NCBI GenBank assembly: GCA_039961635.1
Contig: JABRWB010000012.1
Span: 22,273-86,272 of the forward strand
Source of the DNA: a bacterium
GTDB lineage: Bacteria > 4484-113 > JAGGVC01
Direction: 5' to 3'
DNA: 64,000 bases
Shown one piece after another: positions 3,212 to 61,720 of this stretch (position 1 is the first letter of the stretch; each line of letters starts with the position of its first letter). Position numbers and translations under genes: made by a program. The notes under the pieces are model-generated. The model did not search any database. It had not been told where the DNA came from and saw only the letters and a list, made by a program, of their open reading frames with translations.

Positions 3212-4270
3212 ATGCCCGAAACGATGCTTGCCGCAGTGAAAGCCAAGCCCGCGCCCGGATGCGAGCTGATGGACGTCGCCATCCCCGCGCCCGTGGATAA
3301 CGAAGTGCTTATCAAGGTCGTGCGCACCTCCGTTTGCGGAACCGATCGTCACATATATACATGGGACGAGTGGGCGCAGGGGCGCATCAAGCCGCCGTTG
3401 GTATTCGGCCACGAGGGATGCGGCGAAATCGTCGCGGTCGGCCCAGGCGTGCGCTCGATGAAAGTCGGCGACTTCGTTTCGGCGGAGACACACATCCCCT
3501 GCGGTTTCTGCTTCCAGTGCCGCACCGGCAACCAGCACATCTGCAGCCATCTCACGATCCTCGGCGTTGACGTGGACGGCGTCTTCGCGCAGTACGCCAA
3601 GTTCCCGGAAACCGTCTGCTGGAAGAATCCGCCGGACATGAATCCCGACCACGCGAGCATCCTCGAACCTTTCGGCAACGCGTGCTACACGGTGATGGAG
3701 TCGCAAGTATCGGCGAAGGAAATCCTGATTACGGGCGACGGGCCGATCGCCGCGTTCGCCGCGGGCATCGCGCGCGCGGTGGGAGCGACCAAAATTATCG
3801 TAACGGGCCTTGTTGACTTCCTGCTGGAAATCTGCAAGCAAATGGGCGCGGATTACGTGATAAATGTCGGCAGGGAAAAAGATCCGAAGGCGTTTATCAT
3901 GGATCACACGGGCGGAGAGGGAGTGGATGTTGTGCTTGAAATGTCCGGAGCTCAAGCTGCGATAAACCTCGGCTTCAACGTGCTTAAAAAAGCGGGCACA
4001 TTCACCGCGTTCGGAATAAGCACGCAGGACGTTATTTCGTGGCCCATGAACAACGGCGTCGTCTTCAAGGGGGCGAAGATTCTGGGTATCAACGGCCGCA
4101 AGATGTTCGAGACGTGGTACCAGAGCCGCAACCTTCTTATGGCGGGGCGCGTGGACCCGTCTCCGGTCATCACGAACCGGTTCGCGCTGAAAGAAATAGA
4201 CGCGGCGCTGAAATCCATTTTTCTAGAAGGCCGCAGGGCCAGCAAGGTGACGATCGACCCGTGGGGGTAG
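3212..4270 (+). CDS. tdh: L-threonine 3-dehydrogenase (zinc-dependent MDR family).
   Basis: Strong resemblance to Tdh throughout: CGTDRHIYTWDEW, VFGHEGCGEIVAVG, GxGPIG-like Rossmann motif, RKMFETWY. Start at ATG 3212 (MPETM); the alternative ATG 3224 (MLAAVKAK) aligns to the canonical Tdh N-terminus. Confidence 0.85.
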   Translation: MPETMLAAVKAKPAPGCELMDVAIPAPVDNEVLIKVVRTSVCGTDRHIYTWDEWAQGRIKPPLVFGHEGCGEIVAVGPGVRSMKVGDFVSAETHIPCGFCFQCRTGNQHICSHLTILGVDVDGVFAQYAKFPETVCWKNPPDMNPDHASILEPFGNACYTVMESQVSAKEILITGDGPIAAFAAGIARAVGATKIIVTGLVDFLLEICKQMGADYVINVGREKDPKAFIMDHTGGEGVDVVLEMSGAQAAINLGFNVLKKAGTFTAFGISTQDVISWPMNNGVVFKGAKILGINGRKMFETWYQSRNLLMAGRVDPSPVITNRFALKEIDAALKSIFLEGRRASKVTIDPWG

Positions 4271-8529: not shown

Positions 8530-8558
8530 TTGACCGCGTTTGCCGCGAGTGCTATACT
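8530..8558 (+). promoter_or_regulatory. Sigma70-like promoter: -35 TTGACC (8530-8535), 17-nt spacer, -10 TATACT (8553-8558), driving the cobalamin riboswitch and btu operon.
   Basis: Near-consensus hexamers with ideal spacing immediately upstream of the riboswitch. Confidence 0.5.
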
Positions 8559-8564
8559 CCTCCC

Positions 8565-8790
8565 GTTCCGTCGGCGGGAAGCCGGTGCAAATCCGGCACG
8601 GACCAGCCACTGTGAGGCGGACTCCCCGGCACTACGCCATTGCCTTCGGGCGAGAAGGCGCCGGGCGGGGTTGAAACCGAGTCAGGAGACCGGGCGGAAA
8701 CTTCAGGGCTTCTCGGAGTAAGCCGCGATGGCTTTCGGCTTTCGCTGTTTCGGCATTGCGATATCTGTATCGGGTGCGCGGCCCGTGCGG
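8565..8790 (+). promoter_or_regulatory. Cobalamin (B12) riboswitch.
   Basis: Conserved core GGGAAGCCGGTGCAAATCCGGCACGGACCAGCCACTGTGA (8575-8615), including the B12 box GCCACTG. Located in the leader of an ABC importer and TonB receptor operon. Confidence 0.75.
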
Positions 8791-48055: not shown

Positions 48056-48059
48056 GTTT

Positions 48060-48137
48060 TTATGTGGGAGTGCACCTTTATGTGGGAGTGCACCGGCTTG
48101 CCGGTGCCTTTGTCGGGAGCAAGCTCCCGCACTCCCA
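48060..48137. repeat. REP/MITE-like nested-palindrome element, copy 2, with a partial tandem duplication of its 5' arm. Located between the dnaE2 start and the DUF72 start.
   Basis: TTATGTGGGAGTGCACC (48060-48076) then TTTATGTGGGAGTGCACC-GGCTTGCCGGTGC-CTTTGTC-GGGAGCaaGCTCCC-GCACTCCC (48077-48137). The reverse complement matches copy 1 at about 85 % identity. Confidence 0.7.
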
Positions 48138-49157: not shown

Positions 49158-50189
49158 TCATGCCCCCACCCCCGCGAGCTCGCGGCCGGTTTTTATCGCT
49201 TCGAATCCGTACTTCGCGCGCACCCGGTTGACGCTGCGCTCAAGCGCTTCGCCCTTCACCCGCGACGCGGGAACGAACAGCCTGTCCTGCACGACGAACG
49301 GATAGAACCGCGACGCGGTTATCTCGACCGCGGCCACGTTCACGCGCCGAGTGTGCGCCCGCTCCGCGAGCTCCCGCGACGCGCACAGCATGTCGCACGC
49401 GTACGGCGTAGGCTCGGCCAAAGTCGCGCCCGCGTACCGCCTGCCGCCGTCTATGTAATGCAGCGCGAGGTCCAGCCTGCGCACCGCGCGCATCGCGCCC
49501 TCCCTGTACAGCGCGAACGAAAGCCGGTCGCAGACCACTTCCAGATACGGCGCAAGCCCGTCCGGCGACGAGACGCCGGGCGCGGGGACGGGCATCCGCT
49601 CGACAATCGCCTGCGGCCGCTCGGCCAGCTTCGGCGGAGAGACGTCCCGGCCGCGGCACTGGTGGAACGCTATATGGGCGAACCTGCGGCCGACGAGCAA
49701 ATCCAGGGCGCCGCGCTCAAGCCGCGCCACATCGCCAAGCTGGCGCAATCCGATCCGATGGAGCCGCTCCAAAGCTGGCTCCGGCAAATAAAGCGCGGGG
49801 AGAGGAAGTGGGGCGACCGCTTCGGATTCCGCGCCCGCGGGAACGAGCAGACCGCCGCGGCATTCAGCGCGCCGCCATTTGACGACCAAGCGCGCGACGG
49901 TCGCGTTGGGAGCGAGGCACATCGCGGCCGAGTCCGCGCCGCGCGCGCACGCGTGCTCCAGCGCAACCAGCGCCGCGCGCCCGGCCTCGAACACGTCCGG
50001 ATACACACGTCCGCAGCCGGTGAAGTCGGCCAGCCAGTCGCACCGCGGACGCGGCTCGACCGCGGGCGCGAACCGCCAAAGAAGCGTGCGTCCCGCATCC
50101 GGCCAGAGCGGCGGCCCGTCCATCCCGGCGCCGATCGAATACCAGGCGTACGATCGGGCGGCCGCCTCCGGGTTATCAATACTGAACAC
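49158..50189 (-). CDS. imuB: ImuB-like Y-family polymerase paralog (catalytically degenerate), accessory to DnaE2.
   Basis: Y-family HhH/thumb-like region LPLPALYLPEPALERLHRIGLRQLGDVARLERGALDLLVGRRFAHIAFHQCRGRDVSP resembles the DinB LPVxKLWGVG...LGIxTxGDL segment. The N-terminal region lacks catalytic acidic motifs. Shorter (343 aa) than typical ImuB. Confidence 0.55.
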   Translation of the reverse strand: MFSIDNPEAAARSYAWYSIGAGMDGPPLWPDAGRTLLWRFAPAVEPRPRCDWLADFTGCGRVYPDVFEAGRAALVALEHACARGADSAAMCLAPNATVARLVVKWRRAECRGGLLVPAGAESEAVAPLPLPALYLPEPALERLHRIGLRQLGDVARLERGALDLLVGRRFAHIAFHQCRGRDVSPPKLAERPQAIVERMPVPAPGVSSPDGLAPYLEVVCDRLSFALYREGAMRAVRRLDLALHYIDGGRRYAGATLAEPTPYACDMLCASRELAERAHTRRVNVAAVEITASRFYPFVVQDRLFVPASRVKGEALERSVNRVRAKYGFEAIKTGRELAGVGA

Positions 50190-50234: not shown

Positions 50235-50840
50235 TTAGCCGTTGTCCCAGCGCGGCGGCTTGCCGCCCGCGCCGGATAAATCCGATAGATTAACGCGCGT
50301 GACCGGATATGGAACCGGACGGACGTATTCGAATTGGAGCTGGTCCACGTTTTCGCCTTGAACGAAAAGCGAAGACTTGAAAACGCCGACTTGGTTGAAT
50401 CCCAGTTTCGGATAAAGCGGGATGAGCGGATCCCAGCCCGCGGCCGAAGATATCGTCACGCGATCCATACGACAATCGCCGGTCAGGTAGTCACGCGCGA
50501 GCGTCAGCGCTTCGAGCCAAGCTTCTTCGTCGAGCGGAACCGCCGGGTCGGGGTACGGCTTGAGCCGAGCCGCGTTGCGCTGGGCCTGGACTCCCGGAAT
50601 GTGGATGTAACCCAGAGCTTTCATCGTTTCCGCTTCGAAAACGATGAACCACGGGCCTTTCGGCAACTGCCAGTCGTGAGACGGAGCTTCGAATTTGCCT
50701 TCCTTCAATTGTTTTTCGATGTCCGCGGTGCGCACCAATTCCCACTTCTCGCGCCAGACGCACCGGTTGTACAGCCCTGCGACGATTTCCGCGTCCGGCG
50801 ACGCCGCGCCGCGGAGCATTACCTTTTCACCTTTAAGCAT
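50235..50840 (-). CDS. GNAT-family N-acetyltransferase (RimJ/RimL-like).
   Basis: Acetyltransf_3-like pattern (LRGAASPDAEIVAGLYN...FIVFEAETMKALGYIHI...). Start trimmed to an internal ATG to reduce overlap with the upstream GNAT gene; the track start is 50861. Confidence 0.5.
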   Translation of the reverse strand: MLKGEKVMLRGAASPDAEIVAGLYNRCVWREKWELVRTADIEKQLKEGKFEAPSHDWQLPKGPWFIVFEAETMKALGYIHIPGVQAQRNAARLKPYPDPAVPLDEEAWLEALTLARDYLTGDCRMDRVTISSAAGWDPLIPLYPKLGFNQVGVFKSSLFVQGENVDQLQFEYVRPVPYPVTRVNLSDLSGAGGKPPRWDNG

Positions 50841-52011
50841 CGGGAACCTCCCTTGCGCCATACCATTCTTCTCTGGAAACGCCGTATAGCGCCGCGCCCG
50901 AAGGCGGACGGCGGCCTTCCTCGACGCCGGAGAACACGGCCTCGAACCGCAGCCCAGCGCGCAAAAGCGAGCATCGCGCCGCGCGGTTGTATTGGCTCGT
51001 CCCGGCGTAGATGCGGTTTATCGGCCACACGTCGAATCCGTGTCCCATCGCCAGAAGTTTCGCCTCGGTGCCGTAACCTTTTCCGCGGTCCGCGACGTCC
51101 ACAAGCAGCGTGCCTACCTCGGCCTCGCCGTTGCGCTTGTCGTATCCCCACATTCCCACCTGGCCCAGCGGCTTGCCGTCCAGCGTTTCGATGACGAATG
51201 TGTGGTTCGTGTCGCCCCAGAAATCGCCCTCGTCGTACCACTTGTTGTAGTCGTCGAGCGTGCAGATTTCGTGGTCGAGATACGGATACGGCTGCGACCA
51301 AAGGTTGGAGAGAAATATCCCGTCTTCTTTTTCCGTCGGACGTATCGCGATTAGCTTGCCGACAAGCCGCGTCTGCGCTTTTTCGGAATCGGGGACTTCG
51401 CGCGGTTCGACGGGATCGGTGTTGCCGTACAACTTCCAATCGCGCTTCGCCGCCCTGTAGTCCGAGCGCGTCATGCCATAGTTGTAGAAATCACAATACT
51501 TGCCGTGAATGAACCGGATATTGCGAGCGATTCCCTCGCGCTTGAATCCGCACTTTTCGAGCGACCGGATCGCGGGCGCGTTTTCCACATGCGTCGACGC
51601 GGACACGCGCTCGATCCGGAACGCGCGGAAGAGGTAGTCAACGAGCAGCATCTTCGCGCGCGTGCCCGCGCCCGTGCCGCGGTACGCGGCGGAGATTTTC
51701 GTCCCGACTTCGCACTCGCCGGTGACGTCGCGGAAATGCACGCCGATGTCGCCGATCGGAACGGCCGCGCCGTCCCGCTCGATTTCGACGATGAACAACT
51801 TCGTCTTGTCGTCCCAGAAGCCGCCCTTCTCCATCTGCTTCGCGATGAACGAGCGCGGGCACAGGTTCGTACGGTTGTACGCGACCGGCTCGCAATCGTT
51901 CTTCCAGAGGAAATCAACGTCGGAATCCGCGACGGGCCGAAGCCCCACGGTTCCGTCATACAAATCGTACTTGGTCACTTCCTTTCTCCGAATGAAATTA
52001 GTCCCGAACAT
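50833..52011 (-). CDS. Tandem-domain GNAT-family N-acetyltransferase.
   Basis: Two successive GNAT-like halves, each with an LRPV/IRPT start motif and a conserved ...G...G.G-like acetyl-CoA loop (VGTKISAAYRGTGAGTRA; VGTLLVDVADRGKGYGTEA). Confidence 0.6.
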   Translation of the reverse strand: MFGTNFIRRKEVTKYDLYDGTVGLRPVADSDVDFLWKNDCEPVAYNRTNLCPRSFIAKQMEKGGFWDDKTKLFIVEIERDGAAVPIGDIGVHFRDVTGECEVGTKISAAYRGTGAGTRAKMLLVDYLFRAFRIERVSASTHVENAPAIRSLEKCGFKREGIARNIRFIHGKYCDFYNYGMTRSDYRAAKRDWKLYGNTDPVEPREVPDSEKAQTRLVGKLIAIRPTEKEDGIFLSNLWSQPYPYLDHEICTLDDYNKWYDEGDFWGDTNHTFVIETLDGKPLGQVGMWGYDKRNGEAEVGTLLVDVADRGKGYGTEAKLLAMGHGFDVWPINRIYAGTSQYNRAARCSLLRAGLRFEAVFSGVEEGRRPPSGAALYGVSREEWYGAREVPDA

Positions 52012-52025
52012 AAATGAATCCGGGC

Positions 52026-52052
52026 AAAAAAAAACCCTCCGTTGCCGGAGGG
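52026..52052 (-). terminator. Orphan rho-independent terminator (minus-strand orientation) upstream of the GNAT operon.
   Basis: A9 run (52026-52034), then CCCTCCG-ttgc-CGGAGGG (52035-52052). On the minus strand this reads hairpin plus U9. No annotated minus-strand gene ends here. Confidence 0.5.
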
Positions 52053-52302
52053 CGGAACCTGGCCTGCGCGCAAGCGCCTAGCCGGACGGGCCGCCCCCTG
52101 GGATTGGGAGAACCGGGAGAACGATGCTGTAAGAGTGCGGGAAAACAGGGCAGGGCGCGGCCGCGGGCCGCTTCGGGATGCAAAGCGCAAAATTCATCAA
52201 GCCGTCCTCCTTTGGATGGATTTCCCCGGTGATGCGGTCAGCCCGCATGCCGTGGATTGCGCATTTTACCCCAGATCGCGGGAAATGCAACAGAAAAAAG
52301 TA

Positions 52303-52377
52303 GCCGAGTTGAGAGTTGCCGAGTTGTGAGTTGCCGATTTGTGAGTTGCCGAGTTGTGAGTTGCCGAGTCGAGGGTT
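52303..52377. repeat. Tandem direct repeat, 5 copies of a 15-nt unit (GCCGAGTTGTGAGTT consensus).
   Basis: GCCGAGTTGAGAGTT / GCCGAGTTGTGAGTT / GCCGATTTGTGAGTT / GCCGAGTTGTGAGTT / GCCGAGTCGAGGGTT, read directly; located in a 630-bp intergenic region. Confidence 0.8.
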
Positions 52378-52800
52378 GGAAACAATATCTACAAGGAGCC
52401 GAGGCTTCAGCCTCGGCGGAACGCAATGGAAACCGTGGCAAGTGCAAGGCAAGCCAATCCGAGGAGCGCCGCCCCCAATGGCTGCAAATCAAATGCCTCC
52501 ATATTGGCAGCTATGCAATTCCGCGAACCAAATGCCGGAATCCGGGTCTATAATGACGGCGATGGGGATTTTCCAGCGGGACGAATACGGGCCGATCATC
52601 TCGCCGCGCCGCCGCGCTCCGATTAACGGGTATTCCGGTACCCGAATGTGGATGCGCGCAAATTCCGCGCCAGTGGTACCTTACAAAAGCGCGTAATAGG
52701 GACTCAAGCGGGGTATAATACCAGCGAGCGGTCACCTTCCCGGAGGTTGGTGCAACTTGTCGGGAACACGCCGATTGGTTTTGCACATTGGAGAAAGGAT

Positions 52801-54483
52801 GTGAAAAGGGAGCTTTCGCAACGGTCGTTAATCGGGCCGTTATTTTTTTGTTTGCTTGCTGCGCTCGCGCTGTTAGCTGCGCTTGCCGGATGCGCCGGTT
52901 ATTCTCATCAGAAATACGCACGAGCCGGACACTCGACGCCTCTGTCCGCCGCGCTGGCCGAAATCCGCAACGCCGCGCCTCCCCAAGGCGCAGATCCCGC
53001 GGTTTTCGATTCGCTCAAGCTGCAGCTTGAATCCGAACTAGCCGCGCGCTACGGCGACACCGGACGAATCCCGTCTCGAACCGGAAGCCGGGTTGAAGAT
53101 TTGAGCTACGATACGGGCACGGGATTCATCATTTGGACGTACGTAAACGCGGCGGATTACGACGCGAACGGCGAGACGAGCATCTCGGATGTCACCCCGA
53201 TCGCGCTGAACTGGCAGGCGATTTGCGACGACGGAATAGGCGACGACGCTCACGAATCCTGGATAGACGGCGATCATTCGAACGAAGTGGGGATTTCCGA
53301 CGTGACTCCCATCGCGCTCAATTGGCAGTCCACAGTCGCCGAGTACATAGTCTTTGCTGCCGATGATGAGGCGGGGCCGTTCACCGAAGTCGCCAGAGTG
53401 CCGTTCGGAGATGTTATCGACAGCTGGCCGCCGCACTTCGAGCTGGAATGGCAGCCAGCTTGGGGCGATTATGGCGCGGTTCAGCCCGCGGACGGCGAAG
53501 GCAACACTGGCGAGATGAGCAACGTGGTGGCCATCGGCGGCGCGCTTAAGGATATCGAAATCATGGAGCCGTCCATCACCGCTACGGCGCTTGTGGACAC
53601 CGAAATTCAAAGGACGATCCGCGTAAGAAACAACACGGACGGTCCGATCGACTGGTCGCTCGACCTGACCGGCGCGTTCCTCGCGGCGGATCCCGCATCG
53701 GACACGACAGGCGCGCATTCGATTACCCAGGTGACCGTGACGCTTTCGGCAGTCGGCCTGCTTCCGGGCGTGTACAACGGCGGAATCGCGCTGGATTCGA
53801 TTGCGGGATTCGACAGCTGCCCCGTGTTTTTCACCGTCAACGAATTCGGCGCGGTCGTCAGCATTTTGGAGGATTCGATTTCCGCGACCGCGCCGGAGGA
53901 CGGCTCGGACTCCGAGGTATTCACCCTAAGGAACGACGGAAATATCGACCTTGACTGGGAGGCGTTCGCGGACGATCCGTGGATTACCTTCGATCCCTCA
54001 TCCGGCACTCTGGGCGCCGGGCTTGAAGTTCAGATTACCGCCGATTTCTCGGCCGCGGGAATGCAGGAAGGCGAATACGATTCGACGATCACGGTCGAGG
54101 AATCCGGCAATCCGGCGAACGCGGACTCTTGCGAGGCGCAATTTACGGTGACCACAGGCGGAGTTCCGGTTCTCGACCGCCTGACCGTGGACGGCGCGAC
54201 CGGCGGTTCGGGGACGCAGGCCGACCCGTGGGTGTTCCCAGTGGGCACGACCGCAGTCCAGTTCCACGCGTGGGACACCGACGACAACGAAATCACGGAG
54301 CATCCTTCGATGCTGTTCGATTTCGGAGCGGGCGTTTCGCCCAGCCCGGCCACCGGATGGAGCGTGTCGACAGCCGGAAACTTGATATGGGGCGAATTCG
54401 ATTCGTTAATCGAAGTAACCGGTCAGTACGACGGGTGGCCCGATCCTGCGATGAGTTATTGGATATACAAGGCTCCGTTTTAA
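52801..54483 (+). CDS. Secreted lipoprotein with an N-terminal dockerin-like module (paralogous to the N-terminus of the 4432..8469 protein) and Ig-like domains.
   Basis: Probable GTG start 52801 (SD GGAGAAAGG), giving VKRELSQRSLIGPLFFCLLAALALLAALAGC (lipobox). Dockerin-like ADYDANGETSISDVTPIALNWQ / IDGDHSNEVGISDVTPIALNWQ. N-terminal region PQGADPAVFDSLKLQLESELAARYGDTG parallels PQDADPQTFDILRAKLIEFVTS of the 4432 protein. The track start 52648 is probably an over-extension. Confidence 0.65.
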   Translation: MKRELSQRSLIGPLFFCLLAALALLAALAGCAGYSHQKYARAGHSTPLSAALAEIRNAAPPQGADPAVFDSLKLQLESELAARYGDTGRIPSRTGSRVEDLSYDTGTGFIIWTYVNAADYDANGETSISDVTPIALNWQAICDDGIGDDAHESWIDGDHSNEVGISDVTPIALNWQSTVAEYIVFAADDEAGPFTEVARVPFGDVIDSWPPHFELEWQPAWGDYGAVQPADGEGNTGEMSNVVAIGGALKDIEIMEPSITATALVDTEIQRTIRVRNNTDGPIDWSLDLTGAFLAADPASDTTGAHSITQVTVTLSAVGLLPGVYNGGIALDSIAGFDSCPVFFTVNEFGAVVSILEDSISATAPEDGSDSEVFTLRNDGNIDLDWEAFADDPWITFDPSSGTLGAGLEVQITADFSAAGMQEGEYDSTITVEESGNPANADSCEAQFTVTTGGVPVLDRLTVDGATGGSGTQADPWVFPVGTTAVQFHAWDTDDNEITEHPSMLFDFGAGVSPSPATGWSVSTAGNLIWGEFDSLIEVTGQYDGWPDPAMSYWIYKAPF

Positions 54484-61361: not shown

Positions 61362-61375
61362 TGGTACAAACACAA

Positions 61376-61720
61376 TGGAGGTGGGGGGAATCGAACCCCC
61401 GTCCGAACGGGCACCCGGGACGGCGTCTACGGCGGTAGTCTGCGGATTAATCTTAACGCCCTTCGGAAGCCGCAAACGACACCTCCGGGCGGGCAGCCCT
61501 TAATCTTTCGCGGATGCCGGGCGTTCTCCGCGGCATCCCCTGGATCTGGCCGCGCATCCGAGCCCCAGGGGCCCGGCGCGGTGCGCGGTCGTCGCTATGT
61601 TAAGCGGCGAGAGCGAAATCGCGGTTGGCGATTATGTTTTGCTGGGGTTGTTGACCCGGCGTCCAGCCGCCGGGCGTCGCAGCCGATCGTGCATCCCATC
61701 CGTCGAATCCATACACCCCC
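61376..61720 (-). ncRNA. ssrA: Transfer-messenger RNA (tmRNA, ssrA).
   Basis: Minus-strand 5' end GGGGGTGTATGGATTCGACGG... (complement of 61720 downward). Tag ORF ...GCCAACCGCGATTTCGCTCTCGCCGCTTAA = ANRDFALAA* (around 61601-61630). 3' tRNA-like end GGACGGGGGTTCGATTCCCCCCACCTCCA with encoded CCA (complement of 61376-61378). Confidence 0.85.

Follow-up and report, generated by a model that had tools for sequence, protein, structure and literature searches.

Leader-peptide attenuators carry a promoter-proximal small open reading frame (ORF) which overlaps one strand of an alternative helix ahead of an intrinsic terminator (reviewed in PMC5418344). In the whiB7 leader, efficient translation of an upstream ORF (uORF) leads to the terminator while impaired translation leads to an antiterminator and to read-through (PMC10274678). 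Here we describe a locus of similar design in a bacterial stretch of 64,000 nucleotides (64 kb; the window hereafter). It lies in an 822-bp gene-free gap (positions 51979-52800) between two divergent genes, which encode a tandem-GNAT acetyltransferase on the minus strand (GTG start at 51978) and a lipoprotein on the plus strand (GTG start at 52801). The reading that we prefer, with a probability of roughly 0.55, is that the gap holds three separate things: a leader/attenuator of the GNAT operon, a slippage minisatellite and an independent palindrome. The leader has a conserved anatomy and two competing helices, and it probably controls the adjoining acetyltransferase gene. By analogy with whiB7 and trpL we infer that it acts as a uORF (leader-peptide) transcription attenuator, and with this that the uORF is translated, which way the switch works and what kind of signal it senses. 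The leader is unannotated but of a known regulator kind, and it is found in a small group of uncultured bacteria.

The whiB7 leader of mycobacteria and other actinobacteria shares with this locus a distal promoter, a short uORF, a Rho-independent terminator and a mutually exclusive antiterminator, and in both cases the length and sequence of the uORF vary strongly among species. The whiB7 regulon also includes a GNAT (eis). There is, however, no sequence or family relationship between the two leaders and the phylum is a different one (here Planctomycetia-like metagenome-assembled genomes, MAGs). The uORF described here is not alanine-rich, the regulated gene is an enzyme operon rather than a transcription factor and the leader is predicted from sequence. 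The classical attenuators (trpL/hisL/leuL, bmrB-bmrCD and ermK) likewise give rise to a short terminated leader RNA, which is predicted for this locus. They differ from it in that no run of same-amino-acid codons was found in the uORF and no clear conserved 1:2 'pause/anti-antiterminator' helix is present. Furthermore, typical amino-acid leaders are shorter than this ORF of 39-48 codons and the ribosome would directly mask the 5' strand of the antiterminator.

Riboswitch and T-box leaders resemble the present one in length (230-260 nt) and in having a G-rich antiterminator 5' strand which competes with the terminator. The element that provides this strand here, termed element X (GGGGGUAGUCCGCC in its wider form), is loosely like the T-box sequence (AGGGUGGUACCGCG). 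In contrast to T-box leaders, the antiterminator lacks the 7-nt bulge and the gene that follows belongs neither to the aminoacyl-tRNA synthetases nor to the amino-acid genes. A search of the region and of one relative against Rfam 15 (4227 families, including T-box and all riboswitches) gave no family match at E <= 10. The best score, 25.7 bits for anti-hemB against a gathering threshold of 49.5, was driven by the terminator and none of the others fell below E = 0.1.

Conserved leader and its two competing helices

Orthologues of the GNAT protein are rare: they form nine clusters among 5.8 billion proteins and are 45-50% identical to the window protein; the named genomes carrying them are 'uncultured Planctomycetia bacterium' MAGs. 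The leader was found in five lineages, namely the window itself and the related loci L001/L016/L018, L010-L014, L007-L009 and L015. In the four other lineages the order of its elements is kept upstream of the GNAT orthologues and on the same strand. The neighbour on the far side differs: the window and L007 have a lipoprotein gene there, and L001 and L010 an unrelated gene of 447 aa. As the upstream neighbour varies between lineages, the leader unit travels with the GNAT operon. With an nhmmer profile of the leader, each locus gave a single match and the rest of the window gave none. Further scans of metagenomes and genomes added only three to four true orthologue loci, and the remaining matches were distant single-domain GNATs without the leader.

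The unit occupies positions 52290-52026 of the minus strand and would give an RNA of about 230 nt. It comprises a promoter, a 5' hairpin, a ribosome-binding site (RBS), a 39-codon ORF, element X and a terminator. The -35 hexamer (TTGCAT, 52285-52290) is the same in the window, L001 and L010 and reads TTTACA in L015, and the spacer to the -10 hexamer is 16 nt in all four. A generic sigma-70 scan misses this -35 since only three of its six positions match TTGACA. The -10 hexamer (TAAAAT, 52263-52268) is preceded by GGGG, and GGGTAnAAT was observed at the same alignment place in all five lineages. Transcription is predicted to start near 52257.

The 5' end of the leader forms a hairpin, P1 (52224-52255), with an outer stem CCACGG/CCGGGG and an inner stem AUGCGG/CCGCAU. 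A hairpin occupies this position in every lineage, and in the relatives it takes the form CGCCGG...CCGGCG. P1 is followed by the conserved GAAAUCCAU, one variable nucleotide and AAGGAGG. The Shine-Dalgarno (SD) sequence of the window (AAAGGAGGA, 52205-52213) lies 8 nt before the AUG; its AGGAGG is invariant in the six aligned sequences and the SD-AUG spacing is 7-8 nt in four of the five lineages. About 130 variable nucleotides with local hairpins follow the AUG in the shared layout, another 25-45 variable nucleotides separate element X from the terminator and the run of uridines is U9-10. A C/U-rich mid-element (CAUCGUUCUCC, GGUUCUCC; 52107-52128) can pair with the SD/AUG region. Of the possible duplex partners of the SD core, this mid-element ranks first in the window and L007 and within the first three in L001 and L010. 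The long-range helix between the two dominates the minimum-free-energy folds of L001, L010 and L007. The leaders of the relatives fold better than their shuffles (z -4.2, -2.9, -4.2 and -2.2), and the structural signal is confined to these relatives, which are less G+C-rich than the window.

The intrinsic terminator (GCCCUCCG-GCAA-CGGAGGGU followed by U9, 52026-52053) qualifies as Rho-independent. Its stem (52053-52034) has 8 bp, six of them G-C, with a GCAA loop, and T9 runs down to 52026; the hairpin was calculated at about -16 kcal/mol (z -2.9). Every lineage has CCCUC at the core of the 5' arm, and the position of the terminator is kept in all five. From the T-run to the GNAT start there are 48 nt, in which no promoter-like site was found.

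In each lineage every 16-nt segment of the leader was scored for pairing with the terminator 5' flank and arm, and the top partner was element X in all five. The antiterminator 5' strand provided by element X is GGGGGCGG in the window (52091-52098), GGGGGUAGUC in L001 and L010 and GGGAGUGAUCC in L007; its wider G-rich forms are GGGGGUAGUCCGCC and GGGAGUGAUCCACC, with GGGGGCGGCCCGUCC in the window. The 3' strand (CCGCCCUC, 52048-52055) covers six of the eight nucleotides of the terminator 5' arm, and the antiterminator helix and the terminator hairpin are mutually exclusive. Across the five lineages the element X duplex and the terminator hairpin were calculated at -18.6 and -15.7, -18.2 and -14.0, -15.6 and -13.7, -25.1 and -13.9, and -7.1 and -5.9 kcal/mol respectively. 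When forced, the antiterminator and terminator folds lie within 1 kcal/mol of each other in the window, L001, L010 and L007, and such near-equal energies are what a switch requires. The pairs change in sequence between lineages: UAGUC/GACUA in L001, UGAUCC/GGAUUA in L007 and GGGGGCGG/CCGCCCUC in the window. In the alignment 88.9% of the cells are paired in register, against 38-61% when the 3' partner is slid, and two pairs have changed on both sides.

These results bear on the earlier note on this DNA, which had seen a strong minus-strand hairpin with a U9 terminator at 52026; the terminator is there, with its 8-bp stem and T9. The note had called it an orphan with no gene ending at that place, yet a 39-codon ORF with a strong SD ends 25 nt before the stem. 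The intergenic region, put at 630 bp, measures 822 bp between the gene starts 51978 and 52801. A minus-strand small RNA (sRNA) of 350-400 nt had also been proposed; an RNA ending at the terminator (52026-52053) is very likely, whereas its extent would be about 230 nt. Its start was placed near the palindrome or the repeat, and the conserved promoter at 52290-52263 instead predicts a start at about 52257, downstream of both. With an SD, an AUG, the 39-codon ORF, a conserved antiterminator and a GNAT gene on the same strand, the RNA looks like a cis-acting leader/attenuator and not like a free-standing sRNA. Conservation in related MAGs holds for the leader, which is kept in four lineages, and does not extend to the tandem repeat and the palindrome, which are not present at this position. 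The features listed in the note do not form one element.

Upstream ORF, proposed mechanism and alternatives

The uORF of the window (MNFALCIPKRPAAAPCPVFPHSYSIVLPVLPIPGGGPSG) spans 52078-52197 of the minus strand with its stop codon TAG at 52080-52078. It crosses element X (52098-52091) and stops 10 nt past it. Its counterparts, identified by position, have 44 codons in L001 and in L010 and 48 in L007, and the stop was observed to lie 3-13 nt past element X in four of the five lineages. Element X falls within the last seven codons in the window, L001 and L010 and four to nine codons before the stop in L007. Gene callers had called the counterparts in L001, L010 and L007, one of which is listed by NCBI as a hypothetical protein. 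Between L001 and L010 the uORF has no indels; its last 19 codons show three synonymous and no non-synonymous changes, and its first 25 codons 15 non-synonymous changes and one synonymous change. The C-terminal part reads G-[IV]-L-x-x-D...G-G-S-P-P in the relatives and is proline/glycine-rich (PIPGGGPSG) in the window. The similarity of the L001 and L007 peptides exceeds that of shuffles (P = 0.0005), and the openness of the frame in the other lineages (P = 0.08-0.18) is suggestive at most. Searching 5.8 billion proteins with a profile of four uORF peptides yielded no members but the three already known.

If the locus works like its closest counterparts, transcription would start from the conserved promoter near 52257 and the RNA would form the 5' hairpin and expose the strong SD and the AUG. 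A ribosome reaching the end of the uORF would mask element X, so that the terminator forms and an RNA of about 230 nt is released. Poor translation of the uORF or an early stall would leave element X free to pair with the terminator arm, and RNA polymerase would then continue into the GNAT gene and the gene for its 208-aa partner. The likely product of the locus is a short, terminated RNA from the minus strand.

Several observations weigh against a translated attenuator. The promoter, the start site and termination are predictions, the full-length folds predict a paired SD and the window leader (241 nt) folds no better than its shuffles (z +0.4). The openness of the window uORF is no surprise at 64% G+C (P = 0.69), and the similarity of its peptide to those of the relatives is not significant (P ~ 0.2). 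All three changes between the L010 and L013 uORFs are non-synonymous. One of them turns GTA into GCA and so re-forms a G-C pair of a hairpin, a sign that the RNA rather than the peptide is under constraint. In L015 the ORF has 26 codons and ends 42 nt before element X, the SD-AUG distance is 15 nt and the antiterminator is 6 kcal/mol worse than the terminator. Covariation in the antiterminator is weak, with 23 of 500 shuffles reaching the observed score, because only five lineages (six distinct sequences) are available. No conserved anti-antiterminator was found, as the best partners of element X vary by lineage. In addition, the GNAT orthologues of L099 and L100 have no leader and another gene lies directly upstream of them.

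Part of this evidence would suit a cis-acting attenuator without a translated ORF, that is a riboswitch or a protein- or tRNA-bound leader, in which P1, GAAAUCCAU and the long-range helix and multiloop would together form a 5' domain responding to a ligand or a protein that chooses between antiterminator and terminator. The alternative between terminator and antiterminator is the best-supported feature of the locus and fits such a leader as well. The relatives' leaders fold well with a multi-stem layout in common, L015 retains the RNA architecture without the ORF and the change from L010 to L013 restores a base pair. The small basic protein gene which the relatives carry directly past the terminator (see below) might also serve as an autoregulator. 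We nevertheless regard this explanation as rather unlikely, since none of the 4227 Rfam families matched even at the permissive threshold and the multiloop hairpins vary in sequence and number by lineage, unlike aptamer cores. The conserved single-stranded motif is just a perfect SD followed by an AUG at 7-8 nt, and the stop of the ORF tracks element X in four lineages.

The loci without a leader, L099 and L100, would fit better with an independent gene, encoding a small protein or a trans-acting sRNA of about 230 nt, which merely lies beside a GNAT operon that has its own promoter. A promoter, a 5' hairpin, a strong SD and a strong terminator do resemble a highly expressed small gene, ORFs of 44 and 48 codons were called in the relatives, one as an NCBI hypothetical protein, and in L007 the next gene lies about 170 nt beyond the terminator. 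In the window, however, the 48 nt before the GNAT start hold no promoter-like site, and the linkage to GNAT and its orientation outlast deep divergence, during which the neighbour on the other side is replaced. Beyond the three known members, the 5.8 billion proteins include no relative of the peptide, the 25 N-terminal codons are unconstrained and the ORF is lost in L015. As an independent gene would also leave unexplained a conserved antiterminator isoenergetic with the terminator, we consider it quite unlikely. The same gaps in peptide conservation bear on a version in which the small ORF encodes a precursor like those of ribosomally synthesised and post-translationally modified peptides (RiPPs), modified by the tandem GNAT, with a leaky terminator setting the ratio of precursor to enzyme. 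The order of a short peptide gene, a terminator and genes resembling modifying enzymes would suit it, and the structures that match the GNAT model best include a lasso-peptide acetyltransferase (9iy3). These matches are generic, with SpeG and RimJ equal in score; the peptide is not conserved between the window and the relatives and is absent in L015, L099 and L100 despite the enzymes. As the conserved block also lacks other RiPP enzymes, a protease and an exporter, a RiPP is very improbable. We give hardly any credence to a single minus-strand sRNA of 350-400 nt running from the palindrome/repeat to 52026. Its terminator is real and the minus strand from the palindrome to the leader contains no stop codon or terminator, but the conserved promoter sits between the repeat and the terminator and no promoter-like site was seen upstream of the palindrome. 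Both repeat and palindrome are unconserved at this position in every relative, and the 431-nt stretch folds no better than its shuffles (z +0.5).

Within attenuation by the leader, it is improbable that the locus represents a new class of translation-sensing switch, with an arrest or slow-termination peptide encoded by the uORF, or that its 5' domain of about 200 nt is an undescribed riboswitch aptamer. With an arrest peptide, the response to a small molecule could set read-through into the acetyltransferase operon; a ribosome-targeting antibiotic is one example and polyamines are another, named because the tandem GNAT is SpeG-like. Under the uORF attenuator that we prefer, this type of control, best known in Proteobacteria, Firmicutes and Actinobacteria, would reach an uncultured Planctomycetia-like group, and knowing what relieves attenuation would offer a way into the role of the tandem-GNAT operon. 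An apparently empty gap of 822 bp is now annotated as a regulatory unit, and the case illustrates that an orphan-looking terminator can mark an unannotated leader.

A small, very basic protein (..DWAKF..S..G.GPHR.K..Y.RK.KH..) is encoded in the relatives between the leader terminator and the GNAT gene (L001 5814-6008, L010 5814-6008, L007 about 3251-3415 and L015 about 700-873), and also in L100 (677-871). Pfam gives no match for it, and the window contains no gene for it. An ArfA-like identity was considered and rejected as Pfam gave no support for it. Its possible roles are those of an autoregulator or of a partner that binds RNA or associates with the ribosome.

Tandem repeat and palindrome

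The tandem array consists of five copies of a 15-nt unit (GCCGAGTTGTGAGTT) at 52299-52378, with the core copies at 52303-52377. Each copy contains two GAGTTG sub-repeats spaced 7/8 nt apart, and the five copies carry 1, 0, 1, 0 and 3 mismatches respectively. Tandem Repeats Finder reports the array at 52299-52369/78 with a period of 15, 4.7 copies, 92% matches, a score of 121 and an internal sub-period of 7/8 nt. A mismatch-tolerant search finds exactly five copies and none elsewhere in the 64 kb, and none of 100 shuffles reach five. The five copies given in the earlier note are thus borne out. In minus-strand orientation the sequence is (CAACUCACAACUCGG)5; the array lies 13 nt upstream of the leader -35, with CUACUUUUUUCUG in between. 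The only other assembly of this population, made independently (L102, Logan SRR32934033), matches the window at 100% identity over 7146 nt, including the five-copy array, and therefore the array is not an assembly artefact.

Apart from this identical contig, the array is absent from the 102 related loci, and no repeat was found upstream of the homologous leader promoter in the four related lineages. Contiguous copies without spacers, most diverged at the two ends and unconserved in relatives, are what defines a minisatellite. The array shows these traits, its edge copies being the most diverged as those of slippage arrays should be, and we take it to be probably a lineage-specific slippage minisatellite. 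At most it would modulate the leader promoter, and on current evidence the repeat itself is of minor interest.

Plasmid and phage iterons, with four to five head-to-tail direct repeats of similar unit length, offer a comparison, and the note had suggested that the 15-mers could be iterons for a regulator of the lipoprotein gene. This idea finds no support. The array lies 423 bp from the start of that gene and abuts the promoter of the opposite unit. No further 15-mer arrays turned up in the window or in the related loci other than the identical L102, and no replication or regulator gene is adjacent. Unlike iterons, the copies are contiguous and without spacers, and they stand in a chromosomal context with no rep gene and no adjacent A+T-rich/DnaA-box region. 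Contingency loci are a second comparison: 7-bp repeats lie upstream of the Haemophilus hmw genes and TAAA repeats upstream of Neisseria nadA. The array shares with them a short unit immediately upstream of a promoter and beside a surface-protein gene. It differs in having a 15-nt unit in only five copies, in the identical copy number of two assemblies and in its source, an environmental MAG.

A functional array is unlikely in our view. It could provide regulator-binding sites (GAGTTG every 7-8 nt) acting on the leader promoter or on the divergent lipoprotein gene, a phase-variable spacer or a Rho-loading site which insulates the leader from read-in. Its place 13 nt upstream of the -35 is the usual one for activator or UP-type elements, the hexamer GCCGAG forms both arms of the nearby palindrome and surface lipoprotein genes are often under phase variation. 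The minus-strand RNA of the array is fully unstructured (z +2.98, 200 of 200 shuffles fold better), C-rich and G-poor with UC every 7-8 nt, and in this it resembles a Rho-loading site. These features are set against a period of 7.5/15 nt that is not helical, a motif seen nowhere else in the 64 kb or the 102 loci and one copy number in two independent assemblies. The array is also missing upstream of the same promoter in the four related lineages, no regulator gene is adjacent and the predicted minus-strand transcript would begin downstream of it.

Two other identities for the array were rejected. As a coding repeat it would belong to ORFs (52078-52452 on the minus strand, 52316-52696 on the plus strand and others) which traverse the promoter, hairpin and SD or lack an RBS, and no gene is called across it in L102. 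As for an inserted mobile element comprising the array or the gap, there is no second copy in the window and no convincing terminal repeats.

The palindrome (GCCGAGGC/GCCTCGGC, 52398-52417), a hairpin already listed in the earlier note, has a perfect 8-bp stem with a TTCA/UGAA loop and a predicted free energy of -17.1 kcal/mol (z -3.9). It lacks a U-run and is therefore not a canonical terminator, and it is the sole hairpin of its kind in the window. Its 22-nt core (CCGAGGCTGAAGCCTCGGCTCC, 52395-52416) is 100% identical in L007 (183-204), L008 (17-38) and L009 (2710-2731). In this lineage, the GNAT of which is only 45% identical to that of the window, it keeps the relative strand but sits about 2.6 kb from the leader, at a site not homologous to that in the window. 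The palindrome is independent of the leader, and its recurrence suggests a dispersed family of hairpins in this bacterial group, either protein-binding or like repetitive extragenic palindromic (REP) elements. In L009 it stands at the end of a gene-free stretch of about 600 nt (2204-2814) containing about eight different strong hairpins, several with UGAA-like tetraloops; this stretch has no Rfam match and no credible ORF. We also noticed a 31-codon ORF for a hydrophobic peptide (MEAFDLQPLGAALLGLACLALATVSIAFRRG, 52407-52502, minus strand), the stop codon of which lies in the palindrome loop. It has no SD and is probably spurious.

Flanking genes and minor features

The proposed regulated gene, encoding the tandem-GNAT acetyltransferase of 381 aa, occupies 50833-51992 on the minus strand together with its RBS (GGAGAAAGGAA). 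Its product is 100% identical to the 381-aa database protein P0001 and has two matches to Pfam Acetyltransf_3/Acetyltransf_1. In the AlphaFold model (pLDDT 86.5) either half resembles GNATs of the SpeG/RimJ type. Pfam, NCBIfam, a PDB sequence search, the AlphaFold model and Foldseek together give only a generic likeness to SpeG, RimJ, AAC(6') and peptide acetyltransferases. The partner gene (50235-50861, minus strand) encodes a protein of 201-208 aa without a family match, and it begins within the end of the GNAT gene. The partner product is 41% identical to that of the 195-aa gene after the GNAT gene in L007, and the arrangement of the two genes is kept in all related loci. A gene for a 343-aa protein with weak DinB/Pol IV-like matches (49158-50189, minus strand) follows the partner gene in this lineage only and may be co-transcribed with the attenuated operon.

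On the other side of the gap, the RBS (GGAGAAAGGAT) and GTG start (52801) of the lipoprotein gene were read from the sequence at 52790-52803 on the plus strand. The product, 560 aa as called in L102, has dockerin-like repeats and a BACON-like domain. The TATAAT at 52714-52719, correctly listed before, is preceded by GGGG, follows the GGGTAnAAT pattern seen in the leader promoter and lies 82 nt before the GTG. It could be the -10 of the lipoprotein gene. No -35 hexamer accompanies it, the promoter scan did not report it and the upstream region of the lipoprotein gene, TATAAT included, shows no conservation with L007. A terminator-like hairpin with T7 was seen at 52820-52851 on the plus strand, in the signal-peptide coding part 20 nt past the start. 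It is probably incidental (Phe-Phe codons), though it could attenuate the lipoprotein gene.

The translation-initiation regions of the two divergent genes are near-identical over 15 nt (GGAGAAAGGA[A/T]GTGA; 51975-51989 on the minus strand and 52790-52804 on the plus strand). Both matches are exact, where 0.18 are expected with up to two mismatches. This may reflect shared translational control or just a locally optimal RBS. A 9-mer (TTCATTCGG) occurs once in the window (51988-51996, minus strand), between the terminator and the GNAT RBS, and once each in the homologous intergenic regions of L001 (5326-5334), L010 (5319-5327) and L007 (2594-2602, minus strand). Its positions and orientations differ among lineages and it may be a regulator half-site.

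Elsewhere in the window, a perfect tandem duplication of 2 x 18 nt (TTTATGTGGGAGTGCACC, 48059-48094) at the end of a gene region has the top identity among the other tandem repeats. The only Rfam matches at gathering level were the tmRNA gene at 61373-61720 on the minus strand, with the tag ANRDFALAA, and a cobalamin riboswitch at 8547-8712 on the plus strand.

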